DNA of 23,507 nucleotides, from positions 1-23,507 of the forward strand of contig JAEOTB010000041.1 in the NCBI GenBank assembly GCA_016840065.1, given 5' to 3'. This stretch comes from Candidatus Hermodarchaeota archaeon. Lineage in GTDB: Archaea; Asgardarchaeota; Hermodarchaeia; Hermodarchaeales; Hermodarchaeaceae. Below the pieces are notes generated by a model that was given only the letters and a program-made list of their open reading frames with translations, searched no databases and was not told the DNA's origin. The translations under genes and the position numbers were made by a program. Shown one piece after another: positions 3,253 to 17,552 of this stretch (within the stretch, counting starts at the first letter, position 1; the number at the start of each line of letters is the position of its first letter).

Positions 3253-4191
3253 ATGTTGGATATTCATAGCCTTCCAAAAGCCTTTCTTGAGCGCTTTAGC
3301 TCTCTTCTAGGAGACGAGTTCGACCAGTTCATCAGTAACCTTACCCTACCATCTCAGCATTTCGTACGTGTTAACACGCTAAAAATCCCCCTGAAGGATG
3401 GGCAAGATAGCCTAGCAGAAATGAATATTGAAGCACAACCCCTCCCCTATTACCCAGCAGGACTCCGTATTAAGAAGGGACACGATCTTATTCCGAAAAG
3501 TGTTGAATACGCTCTGGGATACTACTATTTTCAAGAAGGGGCCAGCATGGTTCCACCAATATCCTTGGCTCCTGAACCTAATCATCTTGTCTTGGATATG
3601 TGCGCTGCACCAGGGTCAAAAACTACTCAGATAGCCCAGATGATGGGGAATCAAGGGGTAATAATCGCGAATGACCGTACTTACCGACGAATCACGAGTC
3701 TAGGTCATAACCTCCAGTTCTGCGGCGCTATCAACACAGTTGTTTTACATGAGGATGGGCGGCAGCTTCCACAGAGACTTTCTCTCGAGTTTGATCGAAT
3801 CCTCGTAGATGCACCCTGTTCAGCCTCTGGTCATCTAAGAGGAAAATCACCCCAATTCGAAGCGCCCAATCCCAAACGGCTTCTAGGACTTCAAGCTCTT
3901 CAGAAAGGTTTGCTAAAATCAGGTTTCCGGCTCCTAAAACCTCGGGGGCGTCTTGTCTATTCAACTTGTAGTCTACACCCAGAAGAGAATGAAGATGTTA
4001 TTCAACATCTCTTGAATCACTTTCCAGAAGCTAGATTGGTACCAAACAACATTTCTGGATTAGTAAGCCATTCAGGTCTAACCGCATGGGAAAACAATCA
4101 ATATGATGATATGATGCGGCACTGTTTACGAGTCTACCCCCACGACAACGATACCGATGGCTTCTTCATAGCCACTATTCGGAGGTCCTGA
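3253..4191 (+). CDS. RsmB/NOP2/RsmF-family RNA m5C methyltransferase
   Basis: RVNTLK, YFQEGAS, LDMCAAPGSKT, ILVDAPCSASG (motif IV Cys), VYSTCSLHPEENE (motif VI Cys) and DGFFIA. Confidence 0.95.
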   Translation: MLDIHSLPKAFLERFSSLLGDEFDQFISNLTLPSQHFVRVNTLKIPLKDGQDSLAEMNIEAQPLPYYPAGLRIKKGHDLIPKSVEYALGYYYFQEGASMVPPISLAPEPNHLVLDMCAAPGSKTTQIAQMMGNQGVIIANDRTYRRITSLGHNLQFCGAINTVVLHEDGRQLPQRLSLEFDRILVDAPCSASGHLRGKSPQFEAPNPKRLLGLQALQKGLLKSGFRLLKPRGRLVYSTCSLHPEENEDVIQHLLNHFPEARLVPNNISGLVSHSGLTAWENNQYDDMMRHCLRVYPHDNDTDGFFIATIRRS

Positions 4192-4192
4192 A

Positions 4193-4654
4193 ATGAAATC
4201 AAAACCCACAGTCTCTCTCATTATAGACGATGAGTGGGAAAAATCGGTGTGGGGGCTGCTCCACAACCAGTACGGTGTCTCTCAATTTTCTGGCTACCGC
4301 CTTCTTCGCTCAGGACGGAAGCGAATAAGGATAATCAGCGAGGCGGCATTCAAACTAATCACTCAAGTACCCTGCGCAGGACCTGCTGGCCTATATTTCG
4401 GTGAATATCGACCCCATGTGATACGCCCTTCAATGGATGGTGCTCAACTAATCGGACCCTACGCAACCAAAGGAGTAATCACAATCACAAAAGAACAAAC
4501 AAAGAATTGGCTACAAGGACAATCAATTGAAACTGCGGATGAACAGCGGGGGTATGTCATTGTTTCAGATGGCCACAGGTTCCTCGGATGCGGCAGCCTT
4601 TCCAAAGGAATCCTACTAAGTTTTGTACCAAAAGTCCGAAGACCAAATAAATAA
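4193..4654 (+). CDS. NIP7-like / RsmF C-terminal PUA-domain protein
   Basis: Starts 1 nt after the methyltransferase stop. Contains GLYFG, RPSMDGAQLIG, WLQGQSI, GYVIV...FLGCG and SFVPK, typical of the archaeal PUA partner of NOP2-type methylases. Confidence 0.75.
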   Translation: MKSKPTVSLIIDDEWEKSVWGLLHNQYGVSQFSGYRLLRSGRKRIRIISEAAFKLITQVPCAGPAGLYFGEYRPHVIRPSMDGAQLIGPYATKGVITITKEQTKNWLQGQSIETADEQRGYVIVSDGHRFLGCGSLSKGILLSFVPKVRRPNK

Positions 4655-4687: not shown

Positions 4688-6052
4688 ATGACAGTAACAA
4701 TAACAGTTCATGGCGGCGCCGAAGAAATCGGGTCAAGTAAAATCCTTGTCGAAGATAAGGGTCATGATGTTAAGTTCTTTCTTGACTTTGGGAAGAACTT
4801 TGAAGCGATGCGCCAATATTACGACTTCCCTGTCCAACCAGGAAGTCTAGAGGAGCTCCTCCGCATCGAGGCTACACCAGATCTTCCTGGGCTCTATCAT
4901 CTCCCCGAGAGCAAGGAACAACCTAAAACAGATGTTGACGCAGTTCTTCTAACTCACGCCCACACAGATCACTGTGGATATATTCCATTATTAAACAGGT
5001 CTATCAAGATGTACATGGGTGAGTGTACTCGTCGAGTTTTCGAAGCTCGGATAGAGGGTAGTCGGAAGAGATTTGACACAAACATAGAGGGTCTTGAGAT
5101 AGAGACATTCAAAACGGGAAAGACATTCAAGGTAGGTGGTGTTGAGGTTCAACCAGTTCACGTGGACCACAGTATCCCTGGTGCCTATGGCTTCGTCATT
5201 CATCTCTCAGAGGGTATACTCGTTTATACTGGGGATTTCCGTAGGCACGGCACTAGACCTCAACTAACTCAAGACTTCATTGATGCAATACAGCAAGCTG
5301 GTCCTCCAGATATTGTCCTAAGTGAGGGGACAAATATCGGAAAAGCCGAACTCACCAAAGAGGCAGAAGTTCGTAGGCAGATTGAGGCGACTATTAAGAA
5401 GTGTCGTGGTCTTGCCATTGTAGACTTCTCAGAGGTCGATTTTGACCGTTTCCGCACTATGCATGGCGTTGCTAAAGCAACCAACCGAGAACTCGTCATT
5501 GAGCCCCGCCGGATGTGGATGCTTGACACGTTAAACAAGTGTAGTGAGCTTTCAACACCCAGCATCACTAAAGATACCACAATTCGGCGTTACGCCCCTG
5601 AGAAGAAACGACTCTCGTCCTATGAAAAACTCCTTAGCGAATCAAAACCTCCACTGAAGGACTATGAAGGTCGCGGTGTTAAACCCGCCGAACTCCGCGC
5701 TAATCCTCGTCGTTACCTTCTAGCCACAAGCTTTGGTAACATCTCCCTCCTCCAGCGGGTCAAACCTACTTCCGGAATTTATCTATTAAGCGCCTCAGAA
5801 CCATTCAATGAAGAAAGTGAAATCAGCTTCGATAAGCTGCTAAACTGGTTAACCCTCTCGGGTCTTGCAATGTACACGGCCCACTGTTCTGGTCACGTCG
5901 ACCCTCTGGGGCTTCGCCAGACTCTTGAGGAAATGAAGCCAAAATCCATTTATCCTATTCATACCGAGAATCCTCGGCTCTTCAAACGTTTCCTAGAACC
6001 TAGCGGTCTTAGCATAGTAATTCCTAAACAAGGCGTTCCATTCAAACTATAG
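4688..6052 (+). CDS. Metallo-beta-lactamase / beta-CASP ribonuclease (RNase J-like)
   Basis: GGAEEIG, LDFG, THAHTDH, VDHSIPGA, YTGDFR, SEGT, HCSGH and PIHTE motifs. The start is ATG 4688 or GTG 4679. Confidence 0.88.
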   Translation: MTVTITVHGGAEEIGSSKILVEDKGHDVKFFLDFGKNFEAMRQYYDFPVQPGSLEELLRIEATPDLPGLYHLPESKEQPKTDVDAVLLTHAHTDHCGYIPLLNRSIKMYMGECTRRVFEARIEGSRKRFDTNIEGLEIETFKTGKTFKVGGVEVQPVHVDHSIPGAYGFVIHLSEGILVYTGDFRRHGTRPQLTQDFIDAIQQAGPPDIVLSEGTNIGKAELTKEAEVRRQIEATIKKCRGLAIVDFSEVDFDRFRTMHGVAKATNRELVIEPRRMWMLDTLNKCSELSTPSITKDTTIRRYAPEKKRLSSYEKLLSESKPPLKDYEGRGVKPAELRANPRRYLLATSFGNISLLQRVKPTSGIYLLSASEPFNEESEISFDKLLNWLTLSGLAMYTAHCSGHVDPLGLRQTLEEMKPKSIYPIHTENPRLFKRFLEPSGLSIVIPKQGVPFKL

Positions 6053-6120
6053 CGGAGCGCAACGTGAAGGGTGCTGTCATCCCGAAAGGGTTATAGTTAG
6101 AAGGGTAAAAGAGCCCCACT

Positions 6121-7395
6121 ATGTCCTTTCTGAAAGGGCTTCGTGGAGACCCTGAAAAATCTGCAGCCAAACATGAAACACGTGCTACCCAATTTGAAAA
6201 GCGGGAAGAGGAAGCACGAGCTGCTGCAGAGTGGGTTGCTGCAGCCAAAGATTATACGAAAATTCCTGATTTGAAACGGGCAAGAGACTGTTATTTGCGG
6301 GCTGCCCAGCTTTTCCAAGTTAGTGGCGATTCCTCTGATGAAGAAGCATCACTCTGGAAAGCTAGCAATCTTGCCCTTGAGGAGGAGGACTACGAAACAA
6401 CATCAGAGATCTTTGATCGCCTGATTCACCTAGCTACTCGTCTCAAGAATAATCATCTTCTCTTCAGGACCTTGGCTCTTAAGACATTGGCATTGATTGC
6501 CGCTAATAAGCTCTCAAAGGCAAAGGCAACCTTTAACCTAGTGAATAAGGTCAAGGAAAGGCTAGGCAGTAAAGAATCAAAGAATCCCCTCTTTGTGATA
6601 GCCCAAGCACTGGTTAAGCGGTTTATCGATGGTGAAGCAGCTCCGATATCTAAGATCCCAGAAAAAGTACCTGAATCAGATACTGTTAATCAACTGATAA
6701 CTAGGCTAATCACCACTTATAGAGCTACTGAGGATGCTTCACTATCTCTCTCGCTTCAAAAGGTGAAAACTCCGATTAGAGGAACAATTACTGGGCAATG
6801 TAAACTGAAATCGTCTGTTGCCCTTAGCCTCTTGGAAACAAATCTGCTGACTCCATCTAGTATTTCCTTAACGCAGCCCTTACTCTTCAAGGAGAAATCT
6901 GGCACAAAACTCAATGCCACCTTCGCCCTTGAAGCAAATCTTCCTGGTGAGTTCCAAATAGGACCAGCTTATGTGGTGCTAGAGTTAGAGAATCAACGGT
7001 TTCAACTCAAATCCAATTCCGCACCTTTGAGTGTTGCCGCTGCCAAACCTCGTATATATGCGGAAGTGCAGACCTCATCTGAAATTTACTCGCAGGAGGA
7101 ATTCGAACTCGTCCTTCGAGTGAAAAATGAAAGTCACGGTGATGCATCAGAAGTCACTCTCCGTGTTATACTACCACCTAGTCTTAGGCTACAAACAGGA
7201 ACTTTGGAAAAACGAATTGTTACTCTGCCTTCTCAGCAAGAGGTGCATTTTCCTCTCTTTCTTATAGCTTCAAAGATTGGTGCGCATGAAGGTTCGATCG
7301 ATTTGGAGTACAAAGGTGCGAGTCGAAGACGCCGCAAGGAAACTAACCCATTTACAGTTACAGTTAAACGCCGAAAACGAAAACATAAGAATTAA
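6121..7395 (+). CDS. Hypothetical protein: SNAP/TPR-like helical repeats, two Ig-like (BatD/CARDB-like) domains, polybasic C-terminus
   Basis: 424-aa ORF with an Ala-rich helical N-half showing A-x2/3-[WY]-x2-AA repeats and a beta-rich C-half (GEFQIGPAYV; FELVLRVKNESHGDASEVTLRVILPPSL). Ends in RRRRK...KRRKRKHKN. No signal peptide or TM segment. Confidence 0.7.
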   Translation: MSFLKGLRGDPEKSAAKHETRATQFEKREEEARAAAEWVAAAKDYTKIPDLKRARDCYLRAAQLFQVSGDSSDEEASLWKASNLALEEEDYETTSEIFDRLIHLATRLKNNHLLFRTLALKTLALIAANKLSKAKATFNLVNKVKERLGSKESKNPLFVIAQALVKRFIDGEAAPISKIPEKVPESDTVNQLITRLITTYRATEDASLSLSLQKVKTPIRGTITGQCKLKSSVALSLLETNLLTPSSISLTQPLLFKEKSGTKLNATFALEANLPGEFQIGPAYVVLELENQRFQLKSNSAPLSVAAAKPRIYAEVQTSSEIYSQEEFELVLRVKNESHGDASEVTLRVILPPSLRLQTGTLEKRIVTLPSQQEVHFPLFLIASKIGAHEGSIDLEYKGASRRRRKETNPFTVTVKRRKRKHKN

Positions 7396-7423: not shown

Positions 7424-8701
7424 ATGCGCGCACTTCTCTTAGCTGGAAGCCAGAGCACTAGGATGTGGCCCCTTGTTGAAACCCGCCCAAAACCCCTACT
7501 CAGTATTGGCGGTAAACCTATCATTCAATGGATGATAGAGGATTTGAAGGCGGCAGGAATCCGAAATATCGTTGTCTCCATCGGATATCTTGGCGAACAG
7601 ATCAGCGATTTCCTTGGGCGAGGACACGGTCTGGGTGTAAAAATTGATTATGTTACTCAAGAGGAAGAACGCGGCGTAGCCGAATCCATTTTAATCGCTA
7701 AGGAGGAGTTCGAAGACGATGAATCCTTCCTTGTAGCGAATGCTGATATTCTTGCTGGACCTAAAATCATCCGCCGAGCCCTCAGTCATTACAAAGATTT
7801 AGCTGCAGAAGCAGTGGTAAGCCTTACCCTCACGAATACCCCTCAATTTTACGGAATTGCTGAAATCGATGAACGTGCAAGGATTCGCCGAGTAGTGGAA
7901 AAACCTCAACCTGGTGAAATCCAGAGCCGGTACGCGGTTGCCGGTATCTACGTATTCCGACCCACAATCTTCGAGCAGCTGAGAAAGTCAGGGGATTTAA
8001 CCAAGACCATTCAAAAGCTAATAGATGAGGAAGATAAGGTCTATGGTTCTGTTTGGGAACGAGAATGGGTTGAGGTGTCCTACCCATGGGATCTAGTTCA
8101 GGCGAACCGGTTCGTATTGGATAAGCAGCTAAAAGGGAAAGGGTCGTTCATCGCAGAATCCGCCGATATCCAACAGCCAAGCCGCATAGAGGGATCTGTA
8201 CACATTGGAGATGGAGTTGTTGTACGTCCCCACACTACCATCAGAGGACCGGTTTACATTGGTCCCAACACCTACATTGGGAATAACTCACTAATCCGTG
8301 AATACACTTCTCTTGGAGCAAATGTCATTGTTGGCTTTGGATGCGAGATTAAGGAGAGTATTATCTACGATTCCACCAAGATTGGACGCTTAAGCTTTGT
8401 AGGCGACAGTATCGTGGGTCAAAACGTCGATATCGGCGCTGGAGTGCAACTTGTAAACCATCCGCTCGCGGGTAAAACCATAACCTCCACAATTTCAGGC
8501 CAAACAGAAATCGTACCCAGAAAGAAGTTCGGTGGAGTAATAGGGGACGACACTATCTTGAGTCCTAACGTCTCGGTATTTCCCGGTGTTAAAATTGGTA
8601 CCAGTTCCATAGTACTCCCTGGTACAGTCCTCGATGAGGATGTTCCATCACGCACTGAAGCCCGGCTTCACCAAAAGGTTGATTTGCGCCCCTTAGACTA
8701 A
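7424..8701 (+). CDS. GlmU-like sugar-phosphate nucleotidyltransferase with left-handed beta-helix domain; catalytic motifs degenerate
   Basis: Start moved to ATG 7424 (MRALLLAG), which removes the overlap with the upstream gene. Contains TRMWPL, RPKPLL, YVTQ, YG, VEKP, AGIYVF, YPWDL, hexapeptide repeats and KFGGVIGD. Confidence 0.88.
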   Translation: MRALLLAGSQSTRMWPLVETRPKPLLSIGGKPIIQWMIEDLKAAGIRNIVVSIGYLGEQISDFLGRGHGLGVKIDYVTQEEERGVAESILIAKEEFEDDESFLVANADILAGPKIIRRALSHYKDLAAEAVVSLTLTNTPQFYGIAEIDERARIRRVVEKPQPGEIQSRYAVAGIYVFRPTIFEQLRKSGDLTKTIQKLIDEEDKVYGSVWEREWVEVSYPWDLVQANRFVLDKQLKGKGSFIAESADIQQPSRIEGSVHIGDGVVVRPHTTIRGPVYIGPNTYIGNNSLIREYTSLGANVIVGFGCEIKESIIYDSTKIGRLSFVGDSIVGQNVDIGAGVQLVNHPLAGKTITSTISGQTEIVPRKKFGGVIGDDTILSPNVSVFPGVKIGTSSIVLPGTVLDEDVPSRTEARLHQKVDLRPLD

Positions 8702-9096: not shown

Positions 9097-11808
9097 ATGA
9101 CAGAAAAATGGGTATATCTATTCAGTGAAGGCAACAGGGATATGCGCAACCTCCTAGGAGGAAAAGGCGCAAACCTAGCCGAAATGACCAACGCAGGAAT
9201 CCCAGTCCCACCTGGATTCACTATAACAACGGAAGCCTGTAATGCCTACTTCAAGGGTGGAAAACAATTCCCCAAAGGTATGTGGGAGCAAGTATTGGGT
9301 GCCCTAAAGGCAATAGAAAAACAAACAGACAAACGCCTAGGAGATCCCTCCAACCCGCTGCTCGTATCCTGCCGCTCAGGAGCAAGAGTAAGCATGCCAG
9401 GGATGATGGACACCGTACTCAATATTGGTCTGAATCCGACTGTTTTGGAGGGCTTTGCGAAGCTAACTGGAAACGAGCGTACTGCTTGGGATGCCTATCG
9501 TCGTTTGATTCAGATGTTTGGTAATATTGTAAAGGGGATGGATCGCCACGCTTTCGAGGCTATTCTTGATAAGTACAAGGAAAAGACTGGGGGCGGCAAG
9601 GACACGGACTTGACTGTAGATATGTTGAAGGACTTGGTTAGGGATTTCAAGGCTTTGTACGAAAAGGAACTTGGCGAGACGTTTCCCGATGAGCCGCATG
9701 ATCAGATTAAGCAGGCAATCGCCGCTGTCTTTGAGTCATGGTTCGGAGCTCCTGCTACAGCTTATCGTAATGCCGAAGGACTTCCCCACGATTGGGGCAC
9801 GGCAGTGAATGTGCAAACCATGGTCTTTGGAAACATGGGTGAGGGGAGTGGGACCGGTGTTGCATTCACTCGGAATCCAGCTAACGGTGAAAGAGTAGTG
9901 TGGGGTGAGTATCTGCTTAACGCTCAAGGAGAAGATGTAGTTGCTGGTATCCGAACTCCGCAACCCATCTCGAGATTGGCAGATGATATGCCTGAAATAT
10001 ATAAGGAATTCCTTGAGATATGCGAACGCCTTGAGCTGCATTACCGCGATACACAAGATGTTGAATTTACTATTGAGCGTGGTAAGCTTTGGATGCTCCA
10101 AACCCGAACTGGAAAACGTACTGCTTTTGCCGCTGTGAAGATAGCGGTTGATATGGTCAGGGAGAAGCTTATCAAGAAGAATGAAGCGCTACTTCGCGTG
10201 AATCCAAATCAGATTAACCAGTTTCTTCACCCTCGCTTTGACCCTGTAGCTGTTCAGAAAGCCAAAGCCGAGGGAAGACTACTAGCTCAGGGACTCAATG
10301 CTTCGCCAGGTGCCGCCACTGGAATTGCCATCTTTGATGCTGACAGAGCCGAAGAGAGAGGAGAATCCGGGGAAGCAATAATCTTGGTACGACCTGAAAC
10401 CAATCCAGAAGATGTCCACGGGATGGTTCTAGCCCAAGGGATCCTAACCCAGAAAGGAGGAATGACCTCACATGCCGCTGTGGTAGCAAGAGGCTGGGGG
10501 AAGCCCTGTATAGCAGGCTGTGAAGAGATTGATATTGACCTCGATTCCCGTCAGCTCACAGTGAATGGTCAAGTGATTAAGGAAGGCGATCAAATCTCAC
10601 TTAATGGTACAACTGGTGAAATGTTCGCTGGTGAGATCGCTACTGTTGAGGCTAGCTTTGAGAAAGAACACGATTTAGTAACATTACTTGGCTGGGCAGA
10701 TGAAATCAGACAACTGGGTGTATGGACAAACTCGGACACTCCAGATGACGCAGCACGTGCTCGCGCCTTCGGTGCGGAAGGAATTGGTCTTTGTCGAACG
10801 GAGCACATGTTCTTTGGAGAAGAACGGCGCCCAATTGTTGTAAAAATGATAATGTCTGATAACCCAGACGAGCGTATAGAGCTGCTGAATCAATTGCTGC
10901 CATTTCAACGCGAAGATTTTGAGGAAATTTTCCGGAAGATGGACGGTCTTCCAGTTATTATCCGACTCATTGATCCTCCGATGCATGAATTCTTACCTCC
11001 TCTTGAGGAACTACTGGTAACAATTAACCAGCTGGAACTTGAACTGAAAAACAAACCATCATCTACTAAGGCAAAGGAGTTGAAGAGTGCTCTAGAGGAA
11101 CAAAAACGTGTACTCAAGGTAGTACGCAGTATGTGGGAGGTCAACCCCATGATGGGTCTGCGTGGGTGCCGCGCTGGCATCATGTACCAAGGCCTAACAG
11201 AGATGCAGACCCGAGCTATCTTCGAAGCAGCCTGCAACGTCACCAAAGAAGGCATCGAAACACACCCAGAAATAATGATACCCCTGATTAGCCACGTCAA
11301 TGAACTTAAACTGGAAAGATCCAAACTGGAAAAAGTCGCGAAAGAAGTAATGGCTGAAAGTGGTGAAGAAGTAGATTACAAATTTGGAACTATGATTGAA
11401 ATCCCTAGAGCAGCTATTACCGCAGAAAAAGTCGCCAAATATGCTGACTTCTTTTCCTTTGGTACAAACGACTTGACGCAAATGACATATGGTGTCAGCC
11501 GTGATGATGCTGAAGGGAAGTTCCTACGACAATACGTGGGTTTAGGCATTCTAGAAGCAAATCCCTTTGAAGTCCTAGACAGAGAGGGAGTGGGTGTGCT
11601 AATGCGGATGGCTGTTGAAAAGGGTAGAAGCGCAAAGCCAGATTTGGAGATTGGCGGATGTGGTGAGCACTTTGGAGAACCTAACTCGATAGAGTTCTCA
11701 CACATAATTGGTTTGAACTATGTCAGTTGCTCTCCTTTTCGTGTTCCTATCGCACGTCTCGCAGCAGCTCAGGCTGCTCTAAGGCATAAGTATGGGCGCA
11801 AAAGCTAG
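9097..11808 (+). CDS. ppdK: Pyruvate, phosphate dikinase
   Basis: LLGGKGANLAEM, VPPGFTITTEAC, PLLVSCRSGA, MPGMMDT, GGMTSHAAVVARG (phospho-His), GIGLCRTEHMF, FSFGTNDLTQ and CGEH. The start is probably ATG 9097 (MTEKWVYLF); 9079 is an alternative. Confidence 0.97.
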   Translation: MTEKWVYLFSEGNRDMRNLLGGKGANLAEMTNAGIPVPPGFTITTEACNAYFKGGKQFPKGMWEQVLGALKAIEKQTDKRLGDPSNPLLVSCRSGARVSMPGMMDTVLNIGLNPTVLEGFAKLTGNERTAWDAYRRLIQMFGNIVKGMDRHAFEAILDKYKEKTGGGKDTDLTVDMLKDLVRDFKALYEKELGETFPDEPHDQIKQAIAAVFESWFGAPATAYRNAEGLPHDWGTAVNVQTMVFGNMGEGSGTGVAFTRNPANGERVVWGEYLLNAQGEDVVAGIRTPQPISRLADDMPEIYKEFLEICERLELHYRDTQDVEFTIERGKLWMLQTRTGKRTAFAAVKIAVDMVREKLIKKNEALLRVNPNQINQFLHPRFDPVAVQKAKAEGRLLAQGLNASPGAATGIAIFDADRAEERGESGEAIILVRPETNPEDVHGMVLAQGILTQKGGMTSHAAVVARGWGKPCIAGCEEIDIDLDSRQLTVNGQVIKEGDQISLNGTTGEMFAGEIATVEASFEKEHDLVTLLGWADEIRQLGVWTNSDTPDDAARARAFGAEGIGLCRTEHMFFGEERRPIVVKMIMSDNPDERIELLNQLLPFQREDFEEIFRKMDGLPVIIRLIDPPMHEFLPPLEELLVTINQLELELKNKPSSTKAKELKSALEEQKRVLKVVRSMWEVNPMMGLRGCRAGIMYQGLTEMQTRAIFEAACNVTKEGIETHPEIMIPLISHVNELKLERSKLEKVAKEVMAESGEEVDYKFGTMIEIPRAAITAEKVAKYADFFSFGTNDLTQMTYGVSRDDAEGKFLRQYVGLGILEANPFEVLDREGVGVLMRMAVEKGRSAKPDLEIGGCGEHFGEPNSIEFSHIIGLNYVSCSPFRVPIARLAAAQAALRHKYGRKS

Positions 11809-11850
11809 CGCGTTACTATCCTTGAAAGTCGGAGCTAGTGCTGAAACGCA

Positions 11851-12513
11851 TTATCTTAACTGAAAGAGATAGAGAGTTTCAAGGAAACCAAGGAGCCTCC
11901 CCGTTGCTAGAATTTCTAGCTGGAAGTTCGATTGCTCAATCATATGTAGTATCTCTTGAAGTGGAGCAACCGAACTAAAGAGGATTTGAATCCTCCCCTT
12001 CTTTGTTAGATTTCGTGGTGCCTCAACAAGGAACCGATAAATCAGTTTGCATTGGGGTCCAGCATACCAGGCTTGTGCTAATAGGTCTCTAGGTTTTCCT
12101 GTTAGATATGGTGGATTGAAAAGAATTAGATCAAATCGCTGCCTTTGTACTGGTTCGAAAAGGTTTCCTTGTTTTACGTCTACAACGCTTTCAAGGCGGT
12201 TTAGGCGTATTGTTTCTTTAGCGCATTTTACTGAATATGGGTTTATGTCTGTGGCAACAACTCGCTTAGCGTAGCGTGCAGCAAAGGCGGCTATGGCACC
12301 AGTTCCTGTCCCTAATTCTAGAACCCTTGAGCCTCGGGGAATAATCATATGACGTATGAAAAAACGTGTAGTTCCGCTAACCAGTGGGTTGAATACGTGG
12401 GGGCAAATCTGAATTCTCACACCTTCTAGAACAGACGTTCGAGGTCGAAGTCTCCGATGAAGAAGCTCCAATACCCATGGAATGATTCTAGTATGTGGTT
12501 TTGTGGTAGCCAT
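11851..12513 (-). CDS. HemK/PrmC/MTQ2-like SAM-dependent methyltransferase
   Basis: VLELGTGTGAIA, ATDINP, GNLFEP and ILFNPPYL. Confidence 0.88.
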   Translation of the reverse strand: MATTKPHTRIIPWVLELLHRRLRPRTSVLEGVRIQICPHVFNPLVSGTTRFFIRHMIIPRGSRVLELGTGTGAIAAFAARYAKRVVATDINPYSVKCAKETIRLNRLESVVDVKQGNLFEPVQRQRFDLILFNPPYLTGKPRDLLAQAWYAGPQCKLIYRFLVEAPRNLTKKGRIQILFSSVAPLQEILHMIEQSNFQLEILATGRLLGFLETLYLFQLR

Positions 12514-14858: not shown

Positions 14859-15299
14859 ATGTCTATGGCGTTGTTCATGACGGACCAACAACCTGAAAAA
14901 ACAATTGTCAAGTTGCGCGAGTGGTCACGAGAAATAAACCGAGGTTTCATAGAATTCTGGGTACTTTCGCTACTAAGGAGAGAAAGCCTCTACGGCGCTC
15001 GCATATCGAATCTACTAGACGATTTAACCGAAGGTCGTATACAACTCGAACCCGGCACAATCTACCCACTTCTTCGTCGACTCGCTGAAAGTGGATGGAT
15101 AGTCAGTGACATTCGCGTAAGAAGCGTGGGTCGCGGACCAATGCGCCGCTACTACCGGCTAACCAAAGAAGGGAAGCAGTTACATAGTAGAATGGTAGAG
15201 CATTATTTAGGGAGTTTCGAGGAGCTATTGAAAATGATGGTGATTGACTTCAGGTCCGTTCGCGAACGCTTAATTCATTTAATGAAGGAGATAGAATAA
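14859..15299 (+). CDS. PadR-family transcriptional regulator
   Basis: RGFIEFWVLSLL, LYG, PGTIYPLLRRL...GWI and RRYYRLTKEG. The start could be ATG 14877. Confidence 0.92.
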   Translation: MSMALFMTDQQPEKTIVKLREWSREINRGFIEFWVLSLLRRESLYGARISNLLDDLTEGRIQLEPGTIYPLLRRLAESGWIVSDIRVRSVGRGPMRRYYRLTKEGKQLHSRMVEHYLGSFEELLKMMVIDFRSVRERLIHLMKEIE

Positions 15300-17552
15300 A
15301 TGACAAAACCAATTCGACTAAGAGTAGTTTCGCTACCCAGCGATGAAGCAGGTCGCGGCATAGTCCGAATCGATCCAAAAGCTATGGAACACTTAGGTGT
15401 AACATCTGGTGATATTATTGAGGTACGCGGAAAGAAAACTACAGGAGCAAGAGTATGGCGTGGACAGTCCATCCAATCGGGTAGTGGAAAAATATTCATG
15501 GATGGATTGGTGCGAAGTAATGCAGGAGCAGGAATCGGAGATTTCGTCGATATCAGGAGAATAAATCCAGCTCCCGCTAAGCGAGTGGTACTTTCACCCG
15601 CTCAACGAGGCGTTCGAATCGTAGCTGATGGTAGGGCAGTTCGGCCTAGCTTAAACCAACGGCCAGTCATTGTGGGTGACATCATCAGTACAGCAAGCGC
15701 AGGACCATACCGAAGTAGTGGTTTCTCCCTCTTTGAGGCAGTAATACGCCAAGCTGGGGCACCGTTCGCTCTTGGTGAAATAAAATTCATTGTGACCCAA
15801 ACTTCACCAAAGGGAATCGTGAAAATATCTGAGGAGACAATCATCGAAATTAATCCCGAGGCAGTAGAAGAAGCCCAAAAAGCTCCCCTTGTAACCTATG
15901 AGGATATTGGAGGATTAGGTGAAGCAGTAGATAGGGTACGTGAGATGATAGAACTTCCACTGAAACACCCCGAGCTTTTCGACCGTTTAGGCATCGATCC
16001 ACCAAAGGGAGTTCTCCTTTACGGTCCTCCTGGAACAGGAAAAACCCTCCTCGCTCGTGCTGTTGCCAATGAATCAGACGCCCATTTCATAACGATAAAC
16101 GGTCCAGAAATAATGAGTAAATTCTATGGAGAATCCGAGAAGCGGCTTCGTGAGATATTCCAAAAAGCTGAACAACAAGCACCTAGCATAGTGTTCATAG
16201 ATGAAATTGACAGCATAGCACCAAAACGAGAAGACGTACAAGGAGAAGTAGAACGGCGCGTGGTCGCTCAGCTCCTTGCCTTAATGGATGGACTCCAAGG
16301 TCGAGGAAAGGTCATTGTCATCGCAGCGACGAACCGTCCAGAAGCCCTCGACCCCGCGCTGCGGCGTCCCGGACGCTTTGACAGAGAAATAGAGCTTCCA
16401 GTCCCTAATAGAAGTGGCCGCAAGGAAATTCTCCTTATTCACACACGTGGTATGCCTTTAACTAAAGATGTTGATCTTGACAAACTGGCTGACTCAACAC
16501 ATGGACACGTGGGTGCTGATCTCGCAGCCATAGCACGCGAAGCTGCCATGAACACTCTACGCAGGATTCTACCAAAGATAAAACTAGATGAGGATGTACC
16601 CCTTCCCCCTGCTCTATTGGAAGACCTCGAAGTCACCTCCGAAGACTTTGAAGAAGCCCTTCGAAGAGCTGAACCCTCTGCCATGCGTGAGGTATACTTG
16701 GAAATCCCCAAGGTATCCTGGGCTGATGTTGGAGGGCTCGAAGATGTAAAAGGCGAGCTTCGCGAAGCAGTGGAGTGGCCCCTGAAATACCCTGAGAAAT
16801 TCGATAAAGTAGGTGTCAGACCTCCAAAGGGGATACTTCTCATAGGACCACCAGGATGTGGTAAAACACTACTAGCTAAGGCTACGGCTACAGAAAGTGA
16901 GGCAAACTTCATCGCTATCCGTGGACCTGAAATCTTTAGTAAATGGGTTGGCGAGTCTGAGAAAGCAATTCGTAAGATTTTCCGTAAAGCACGGCAAGTG
17001 GCACCAAGCATAGTTTTCTTTGATGAATTAGATAGCCTTGCGCCTAAGCGTGGGCTATGGCAGGGCAGTCACGTTTACGAGTCTACTGTAAACCAATTAC
17101 TCGCGGAATTAGATGGAATGGAAGAGCTTCGCAACGTCGTTGTCATTGGTGCTACGAACAGACCCGAAATCATCGACCAAGCGCTGCTTCGACCTGGTCG
17201 ATTTGACATAATCATTCTGGTACCTCCACCGGATAAGCAGGCCCGTCTAGAGGTTCTCCGAGTTCACACCCGTGACATGCCTTTAGACAAGGATGTCGAC
17301 TTGGACAAAATCGCTAAAGAGACTGAAGAATACTCTGGTGCTGACCTTGCAAACCTCGTTCGCGAAGCAGGTATGGCAGCAATTCGCACCGAGAAAACCT
17401 TGACCAAGGTAAGAGCAAAGCACTTTGAAGCAGCTCTTGGAAAAATCCGTCCAAGCATCACATCTGAAATGATGAAGGCATATCAAGAAATGATCTCGAA
17501 GATGTCCACCCAACGAGATGCCATCGAAACCACTCCAAGCCCTTATACGTAG
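15300..17552 (+). CDS. cdc48: Cdc48/p97/VAT AAA+ ATPase
   Basis: N-domain ([14 protein letters not shown]). D1 has [22 protein letters not shown] and D2 has [19 protein letters not shown]. The C-terminal PYT has a penultimate Tyr (HbYX-like). Confidence 0.97.

Follow-up and report, generated by a model that had tools for sequence, protein, structure and literature searches.

An open reading frame (ORF) at positions 6121–7395 of a 23,507-nt stretch of DNA from Candidatus Hermodarchaeota archaeon (GCA_016840065.1, contig JAEOTB010000041.1, positions 1–23,507, forward strand; the whole stretch is called the window below) encodes a protein in which a helical domain resembling the SNAPs is fused to two immunoglobulin (Ig)-like domains. 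The source falls in the GTDB lineage Archaea; Asgardarchaeota; Hermodarchaeia; Hermodarchaeales; Hermodarchaeaceae, and its genome is 83.9% (~84%) complete. The ORF is genuine and conserved. It is present in a single copy in the source genome and has 38 close homologues, mostly of 422–426 residues, two of them shorter fragments. The closest relatives (72–77% identity) come from metagenome-assembled genomes labelled Hermodarchaeota, and more distant ones (41–52% identity) from genomes labelled Thor-, Promethe- or Hodarchaeota. Conservation of the N-terminus (MSFLKG...) in 37 homologues confirms the start codon. The gene and the parts of its product are as follows.

6121–7395, + strand: the whole SNAP-like/Ig gene, 424 codons and a TAA stop, from the ORF call and translation.
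6121–6150, + strand: the N-terminal disordered motif MSFLKGLRGD, with a predicted local distance difference test (pLDDT) score below 50 for residues 1–7 and the clade consensus MSFLKG-[ILV]-[FL]-x-G-D-P.
6151–6732, + strand: the SNAP-like helical domain, residues 11–204, with seven helices of 17–18 residues at a 40-residue hairpin period and a C-terminal helical cap, equivalent to SNAP residues ~85–290.
6736–7041, + strand: Ig-like beta-sandwich 1 (Ig1), residues 206–307, from the model strands; it contains the invariant G281–P282 and matches BatD at E 0.004.
7048–7368, + strand: Ig-like beta-sandwich 2 (Ig2), residues 310–416, of the CARDB/DUF11/TRAP-beta type, with N336, P352, G360–T361 and K364 conserved family-wide.
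7324–7338, + strand: the basic cluster RRRRK, residues 402–406, in the loop before the last strand and variable among homologues.
7366–7392, + strand: the polybasic C-terminal tail KRRKRKHKN, residues 416–424, with low pLDDT at its end.

The AlphaFold2 model, built with 37 homologues (pLDDT 92.2; predicted template modelling score, pTM, 0.76), has residues 1–7 disordered, ten helices over residues 11–202 and beta-sandwiches at residues 207–306 and 312–416. The original prediction, made from the sequence alone, had proposed an N-terminal motif, a helical solenoid, two beta-sandwiches and a basic tail. This build is borne out by the model, where the solenoid consists of ~195 residues of paired helices, and the two basic clusters were located as listed above. 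The model likewise agrees with the two beta-sandwich domains and the lack of an export signal claimed there; neither a signal peptide nor a membrane helix was found in the 424-residue protein. A single-sequence search of the PDB and a search of NCBIfam with the protein each returned no match. The model is that of a protein predicted to be soluble, cytoplasmic and non-enzymatic.

The helical domain is specifically SNAP-like, a conclusion on which four independent lines of evidence agree. When the whole model was compared by VIA-align with 48,161 PDB representatives, the top three matches were SNAP-family chains. In Foldseek, ranks 1–19 were all SNAP-family chains, with template modelling (TM) scores of up to 0.74 and root-mean-square deviations (rmsd) of 3.8–4.9 Å; the first TPR protein was LGN (TM 0.59, rmsd 8.6 Å). 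Direct superposition of the helical domain on residues 83–275 of gamma-SNAP and 86–289 of Sec17 gave 2.8–3.5 Å over 187–196 residues. The family shares with the SNAPs (alpha-, beta- and gamma-SNAP, Sec17) and with their derivative HAP40 an all-helical build of 17–18-residue helices, the 40-residue hairpin period and the final helical cap.

Profile searches point the same way. A broad profile made from an alignment of 30 diverse family members (alignment A3) and searched against all PDB sequences retrieved alpha-SNAP at E 3.4e-14 (55.8 bits), Sec17 at 1.7e-12 and gamma-SNAP at 9e-10, while the first non-SNAP chain, an engineered consensus TPR, scored 1.1e-7 and the first natural TPR protein, TTC29, 3.5e-5. 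Its best single stretch (E 9e-7) pairs positions 23–204 with approximately residues 108–286 of alpha-SNAP, spans the non-repeat C-terminal cap and lies in the register of the structural superposition. A HMMER family profile aligned positions 35–115 with alpha-SNAP 121–199 and positions 50–158 with Sec17 132–241. The gapless alignment of residues 50–101 with alpha-SNAP that had been proposed by hand is thus in the register that HMMER finds, and the E-value of the broad-profile stretch takes it beyond chance. The Pfam SNAP model (PF14938) scored 26.2 bits on the 424-residue protein against a gathering cut-off of 25, and no other Pfam family was matched by so many members (26 of 30 at E ≤ 1). By comparison, no TPR_n model of the canonical 34-residue repeat matched the protein at E ≤ 10, and its helices repeat every 40 residues; TPR_2 or TPR_12 was matched weakly by some distant family members.

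A generic TPR-plus-Ig protein could in principle have reached the same likeness by convergence among TPRs with 40-residue repeats, with no common origin. Several observations weigh against a specific kinship with SNAPs. The ~40-residue repeat is common to SNAP, LGN, KLC and Rap proteins, and part of the fold score is therefore class-level. The Pfam SNAP model is promiscuous, matching 18 places in the source genome as well as the Bacillus subtilis and Deinococcus control genomes and scoring 56–88 bits on bacterial STAND-TPR proteins; because of this wide matching, the Pfam match alone proves nothing. With a profile restricted to the Thor/Hermod-like clade, Sec17 is matched at no better than E 0.0036. 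Against convergence, SNAP chains lead both structure searches at about half the rmsd of TPR proteins and are matched over the whole domain, including the non-repeat cap, and with the family profile seven orders of magnitude in E-value separate the SNAPs from every other PDB chain. Convergence is on these grounds unlikely. The original prediction had left the choice between SNAP and generic TPR to be decided by such searches, and structure and profile both place the helical domain nearer the SNAP family.

A profile of the N-terminal domain searched against 5.8 billion proteins of 111–363 residues returned only two fragments of the same family, with no free-standing relative and no eukaryotic SNAP. 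Other proteins of related build were seen in the genomes. In one family (f31; L025:6199–6942, + strand, and L026:6202–6942, + strand), a 247-residue protein consisting of a SNAP/TPR-like domain only is encoded next to the full-length gene, on the opposite strand and convergent with it. It scores 22.5 bits on Pfam SNAP and matches family-profile positions 6–201. Its size is near that of SNAP, and it has the look of a helical-domain paralogue that stands by itself. Contig C116 of the source genome carries a cluster of SNAP-sized TPR proteins, four ORFs of 245–330 residues that all match Pfam SNAP (42–329, 4093–4479, 5047–5436 and 11600–11869, all + strand; best E 6.5e-8), and a 689-residue ORF of the same genome (C56:21688–22320, + strand) matches family-profile positions 43–235, from the helical domain into the start of Ig1.

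A full SNAP has ~290 residues, arranged as a nine-helix N-terminal twisted sheet and a C-terminal bundle. The helical domain (ten helices, residues 11–204) corresponds to only the last two thirds or so of this, approximately the five last hairpins and the cap, and the first four or so helices are missing. By the tests applied, the protein is not a working SNAP: the residues used for SNAREs and NSF are not conserved. In Sec17, K159 contacts the SNARE zero layer (PMC5643095); the column aligned to this residue, and to alpha-SNAP K163, holds A76 in the window protein and A, T, E, S, D or N in its homologues. Gamma-SNAP likewise lacks a zero-layer lysine, and Sec17 L291 and L292, at the free C-terminus, activate Sec18, for which a LALA mutant has been described (PMC5643095). 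In the model of the window protein, the last helix (187–202) runs directly into the first strand of Ig1, and a free Leu–Leu C-terminus is absent. The columns aligned to alpha-SNAP E252/E253, which we take to be part of the NSF-binding acidic patch, read K166/R167, in a region where the alignment is of low confidence. No match to a SNARE domain was found in the source genome, at its 83.9% completeness. Cdc48 is the one ATPase of NSF type seen in the window, no separate search for NSF having been made.

The N-terminal residues SFLKGLRG had been likened to the membrane loop of SNAP, which lies between its first two helices and in Sec17 includes F21, M22, L24 and F25 (PMC5643095). The likeness could not be confirmed beyond chance. 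A profile of the first 33 residues retrieved no SNAP chain from the PDB at E ≤ 10, its best matches being the chance ones to spherulin 3A and PEX5. The motif and the SNAP loop share one end of the solenoid, but they occupy non-homologous positions. M1, F3 and P11 are invariant in the 37 homologues. The motif, in its consensus form, is invariant throughout the Thor/Hermod-like clade but confined to it, being absent from Loki-type and other distant members, and in the subclade of the source protein one of its hydrophobic residues is deleted and another replaced by Arg. The tail is of still narrower occurrence. Over its last 23 residues the source protein has a net charge of +11, and values of +8 to +11 are seen in the four closest sequences (the source protein included), compared with +1 to +2 in most other homologues; distant members end directly after the last strand, without a polybasic tail. 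The membrane anchors proposed in the original prediction are thus not supported as a feature of the family as a whole.

The genes upstream of the SNAP-like gene in the window encode an RsmB/F methyltransferase, a PUA protein and a metallo-beta-lactamase RNase. Downstream lie genes for an NTP-transferase/hexapeptide protein, an AsnC-type protein and PPDK, and PadR–Cdc48 follows at 14859–17552, then TBP. This gene content is that of ordinary archaeal housekeeping genes. The position of cdc48 (15300–17552), downstream behind several genes on both strands, agrees with the earlier statement that it lies ~8 kb away and outside the operon. Within one GTDB family (f1) the neighbourhood was syntenic at 15 of 15 loci (RsmB/F methyltransferase, PUA, metallo-beta-lactamase RNase, NTP-transferase/LbH, PadR–Cdc48), and PadR–Cdc48 was always ~6–8 kb downstream where a locus reached far enough. 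The SNAP-like gene evolves faster than this setting, with 41–45% identity vs 57–83% for the flanking genes (L003–L015). At 12 loci from eight other Asgard families, no window neighbour recurs and no Cdc48 was found within 7 kb. Because it is confined to the one family and gone from the 12 loci, the proximity of Cdc48 is inherited gene order and not a functional link.

The gene appears to stand alone, with no neighbour conserved across families. Just one neighbour, a nucleoside-phosphorylase-like gene of Loki-type genomes, recurs in two families, and we read this as lineage synteny. A Gtr1/RagA-like small GTPase (PF04670, E 1.5e-27) is encoded directly upstream at one Loki-type locus (L029:8435–9379, − strand), and two related GTPase genes lie ~1.5 kb upstream in another family (L034:2836–5430, + strand); this makes two of the 12 loci, which may be chance. 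Asgard genomes are rich in Gtr1/RagA-type GTPases (PMC10307638). With one gene adjacent and one locus where they are nearby, and such GTPases abundant, we rejected this adjacency as evidence.

These results bear on the proposal that the protein is a cofactor of an NSF/Cdc48-type ATPase, which in its fullest form would make it a working proto-SNAP, one that uses its N-terminal tip and basic tail to dock on a coiled-coil (SNARE-like) complex at a membrane and recruits Cdc48, a relative of NSF, for disassembly. No known family is nearer in fold and sequence than SNAP, a hydrophobic motif stands at the N-terminal tip of the solenoid at the end that carries the loop in SNAP, the tail is strongly basic and cdc48 lies 8 kb away with synteny in related genomes. 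Alpha-SNAP lacking 160 N-terminal residues is also reported to stimulate NSF still (PMC2139964). Other observations run counter to the proposal: the column of Sec17 K159 is non-basic, the end of the SNAP-like domain is fused into Ig1 and leaves no free Leu–Leu tail of the kind on which Sec17 depends for Sec18, and the source genome gave no SNARE-domain match. The columns of E252/E253 read Lys and Arg, in a weak part of the alignment. The motif and the tail are both lineage-specific, genes on both strands separate the SNAP-like gene from cdc48, and the 12 loci of other families lack a Cdc48 within 7 kb. We consider a working proto-SNAP quite improbable, and the suggested link to NSF or Cdc48 is not upheld.

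Both Ig domains are of prokaryotic type (CARDB/DUF11/TRAP-beta) and show no preference for TRAPP. They have the Ig-like fold found in CARDB, DUF11, BatD, TRAP-beta and transglutaminase C-terminal domains. The tandem pair aligns to the C-terminal pair of transglutaminase and to the MG domains of alpha-2-macroglobulin, and Ig2 superposes on TRAP-beta at ~2 Å. Across the 30 members, Pfam matches were to TRAPPC13_C (15), DUF11 (12), TRAP_beta (9), BatD (9), Alpha_adaptinC2 (6), Transglut_C (5) and CARDB (3). By language-model features, the Ig pair alone falls among the CARDB, NPCBM_assoc, DUF11 and Transglut_C clusters. The residues invariant family-wide are G281–P282, N336, P352, G360–T361 and K364. 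Ig2 carries an N-x-G ... L-P ... G pattern, which we take to be typical of CARDB/DUF11 and which the invariant residues fit. Domains of the CARDB/DUF11/TRAP-beta type are usually extracellular or luminal; those of the Asgard protein differ in being cytoplasmic, without a signal peptide, and attached to a SNAP-like domain.

A solenoid followed by Ig-like domains is also the order found in the large TRAPP subunits, and the protein might be read as a miniature relative of these (TRAPPC8/9/10/11) or of TRAPPC13, serving as a tether or as a regulator of a GTPase exchange factor. Some matches lean that way. The top whole-model Foldseek match was a large subunit of yeast TRAPPII (7u05_A, 476 columns), TRAPPC11 and TRAPPC8 scored 0.80 and 0.79 by language-model features (a lead only, as these values are under the tool's level for more), half of the 30 members weakly matched TRAPPC13_C, and one family fragment passed the TRAPPC13_N cut-off. 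The Gtr1/RagA-like gene next to one Loki-type member would also suit such a role. Other observations tell against this reading. The 7u05_A match has a TM of only 0.25 and an rmsd of 16 Å, and on re-ranking it falls outside the top 50, where no TRAPP chain survives; the TRAPPC13_C match has E 0.12 in the source protein and was below cut-off in every member with a bit score seen; and the GTPase gene is directly adjacent at one of the 12 loci. Taken by itself, the Ig pair falls with CARDB, DUF11 and Transglut_C. Neither the source protein nor any of the 30 members matched a Foie-gras or Gryzun domain of Pfam. A TRAPP core protein (Bet3-type, PF04051) was not found in the source genome (~84% complete), by a search that was silent in the control genomes too. 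The Asgard protein is also at most one third of the size of the large subunits. We read the resemblance as a shared plan of solenoid and Ig domains and not as kinship, and we judge a TRAPP-like tether to be very improbable indeed. Of the TRAPP-type architecture suggested earlier, the order of the domains stands; kinship is not supported, the Ig domains matching CARDB/DUF11, TRAP-beta and transglutaminase-C at least as well as TRAPPC13 and no core having been found in the genome.

The family is widespread in the phylum. Of 400 Asgard genomes scanned at E ≤ 1e-5, 382 gave a match, as did 86 of the 90 that are of high quality. Matches of full-length strength (E < 1e-30) occur in ~273 of the 400 genomes and in 16 of 33 GTDB families, including ~123 of 135 and 80 of 86 genomes of the two largest families; the family is absent from one GTDB family of four small genomes (1.3–1.4 Mb). 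We did not count the weak matches (E 1e-6 to 1e-17) as members, and in the one genome checked (G116) these were to the TPR part of short ORFs only. Two members, G297:C8:4466–5725 and G232:C23:1326–2642, have one in-frame TGA each, which could reflect sequencing error, a pseudogene or recoding. A phmmer search of 1.84 billion representatives returned 29 proteins at E ≤ 0.001, about twenty of them of 410–446 residues and about half of these aligned over most of their length; the remainder were fragments or generic TPR or CARDB proteins. All relatives with a named source were Asgard, a name being carried by only five of the ten clusters looked up. As judged from these searches, the family is restricted to Asgard archaea and occurs in most of their lineages. 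Full-text literature searches gave no description of an Asgard SNAP-like protein; SNAP is not mentioned in Eme et al. 2023, and a preprint on Heimdallarchaeota SNAREs mentions neither NSF nor SNAP.

Taken together, we hold it reasonably probable that the protein is an Asgard-restricted, cytoplasmic, non-enzymatic adaptor or scaffold, made of a truncated SNAP-fold homologue and two CARDB/DUF11/TRAP-beta Ig domains, that bridges two partners. In the manner of SNAP and HAP40, the solenoid would use its groove or edge to hold a partner that is helical or extended. The Ig pair, which is rigidly attached, would either take up a second partner or bring about self-association, with the result that two cytoplasmic components are bridged. 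In the source genus, the added hydrophobic N-terminal tip and +11 tail could make the protein bind weakly to acidic membranes or to nucleic acid. Two points tell against this adaptor reading. The bridging mechanism is one that we infer purely from the architecture, and the invariant residues look like determinants of the Ig fold and not like an active site, which means that a functional site cannot be located from them. The original prediction of a cytoplasmic, membrane-associated adaptor is in this respect partly sustained: a cytoplasmic, non-enzymatic adaptor is reasonable, and the putative membrane anchors are lineage-specific. Like HAP40, the Asgard protein would have put the SNAP fold to a use other than taking SNARE complexes apart. 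It differs from the SNAPs in lacking the first four or so helices, a hydrophobic loop in its native place, the zero-layer lysine and a free acidic Leu C-terminus, in being fused to two Ig-like domains and in having a host without a detected SNARE domain.

SNAPs are viewed as components of the vesicle-fusion cycle that only eukaryotes possess. Where NSF, SNAP and SNAREs came from is a standing question in accounts of how the eukaryotic endomembrane system emerged. With members in some two thirds of the Asgard genomes scanned, the family offers a concrete archaeal candidate for the root of the SNAP fold. It is conceivable, if doubtful, that the SNAPs of eukaryotes descend from its helical domain or have in it their nearest relative still surviving in archaea. 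SNAP would in that case count among the eukaryotic signature proteins that are rooted in Asgard archaea, and recruitment to NSF and SNAREs would have come only after loss of the Ig domains and gain of the N-terminal helices. The family cannot simply be read as evidence for SNARE-type fusion in Asgard archaea. Its small size and confidently predicted fold make the protein a tractable target for a partner search in cultured Asgard archaea.

Two further features of the locus concern the expression of the gene and its downstream neighbour.

6090–6099, + strand: a TATA-like element, GTTATAGTTA, preceded by a purine-rich stretch and lying 22–31 nt upstream of the ATG, read from the sequence.

This element suggests that the SNAP-like gene may have its own promoter and a leaderless or near-leaderless mRNA. 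The neighbour at 7424–8701 (+ strand), which encodes the NTP-transferase with a hexapeptide beta-helix, also matches the eIF2B-epsilon LbH and GMPPB_C models, and its product is 69–88% identical across syntenic genomes, far better conserved than that of 6121–7395.

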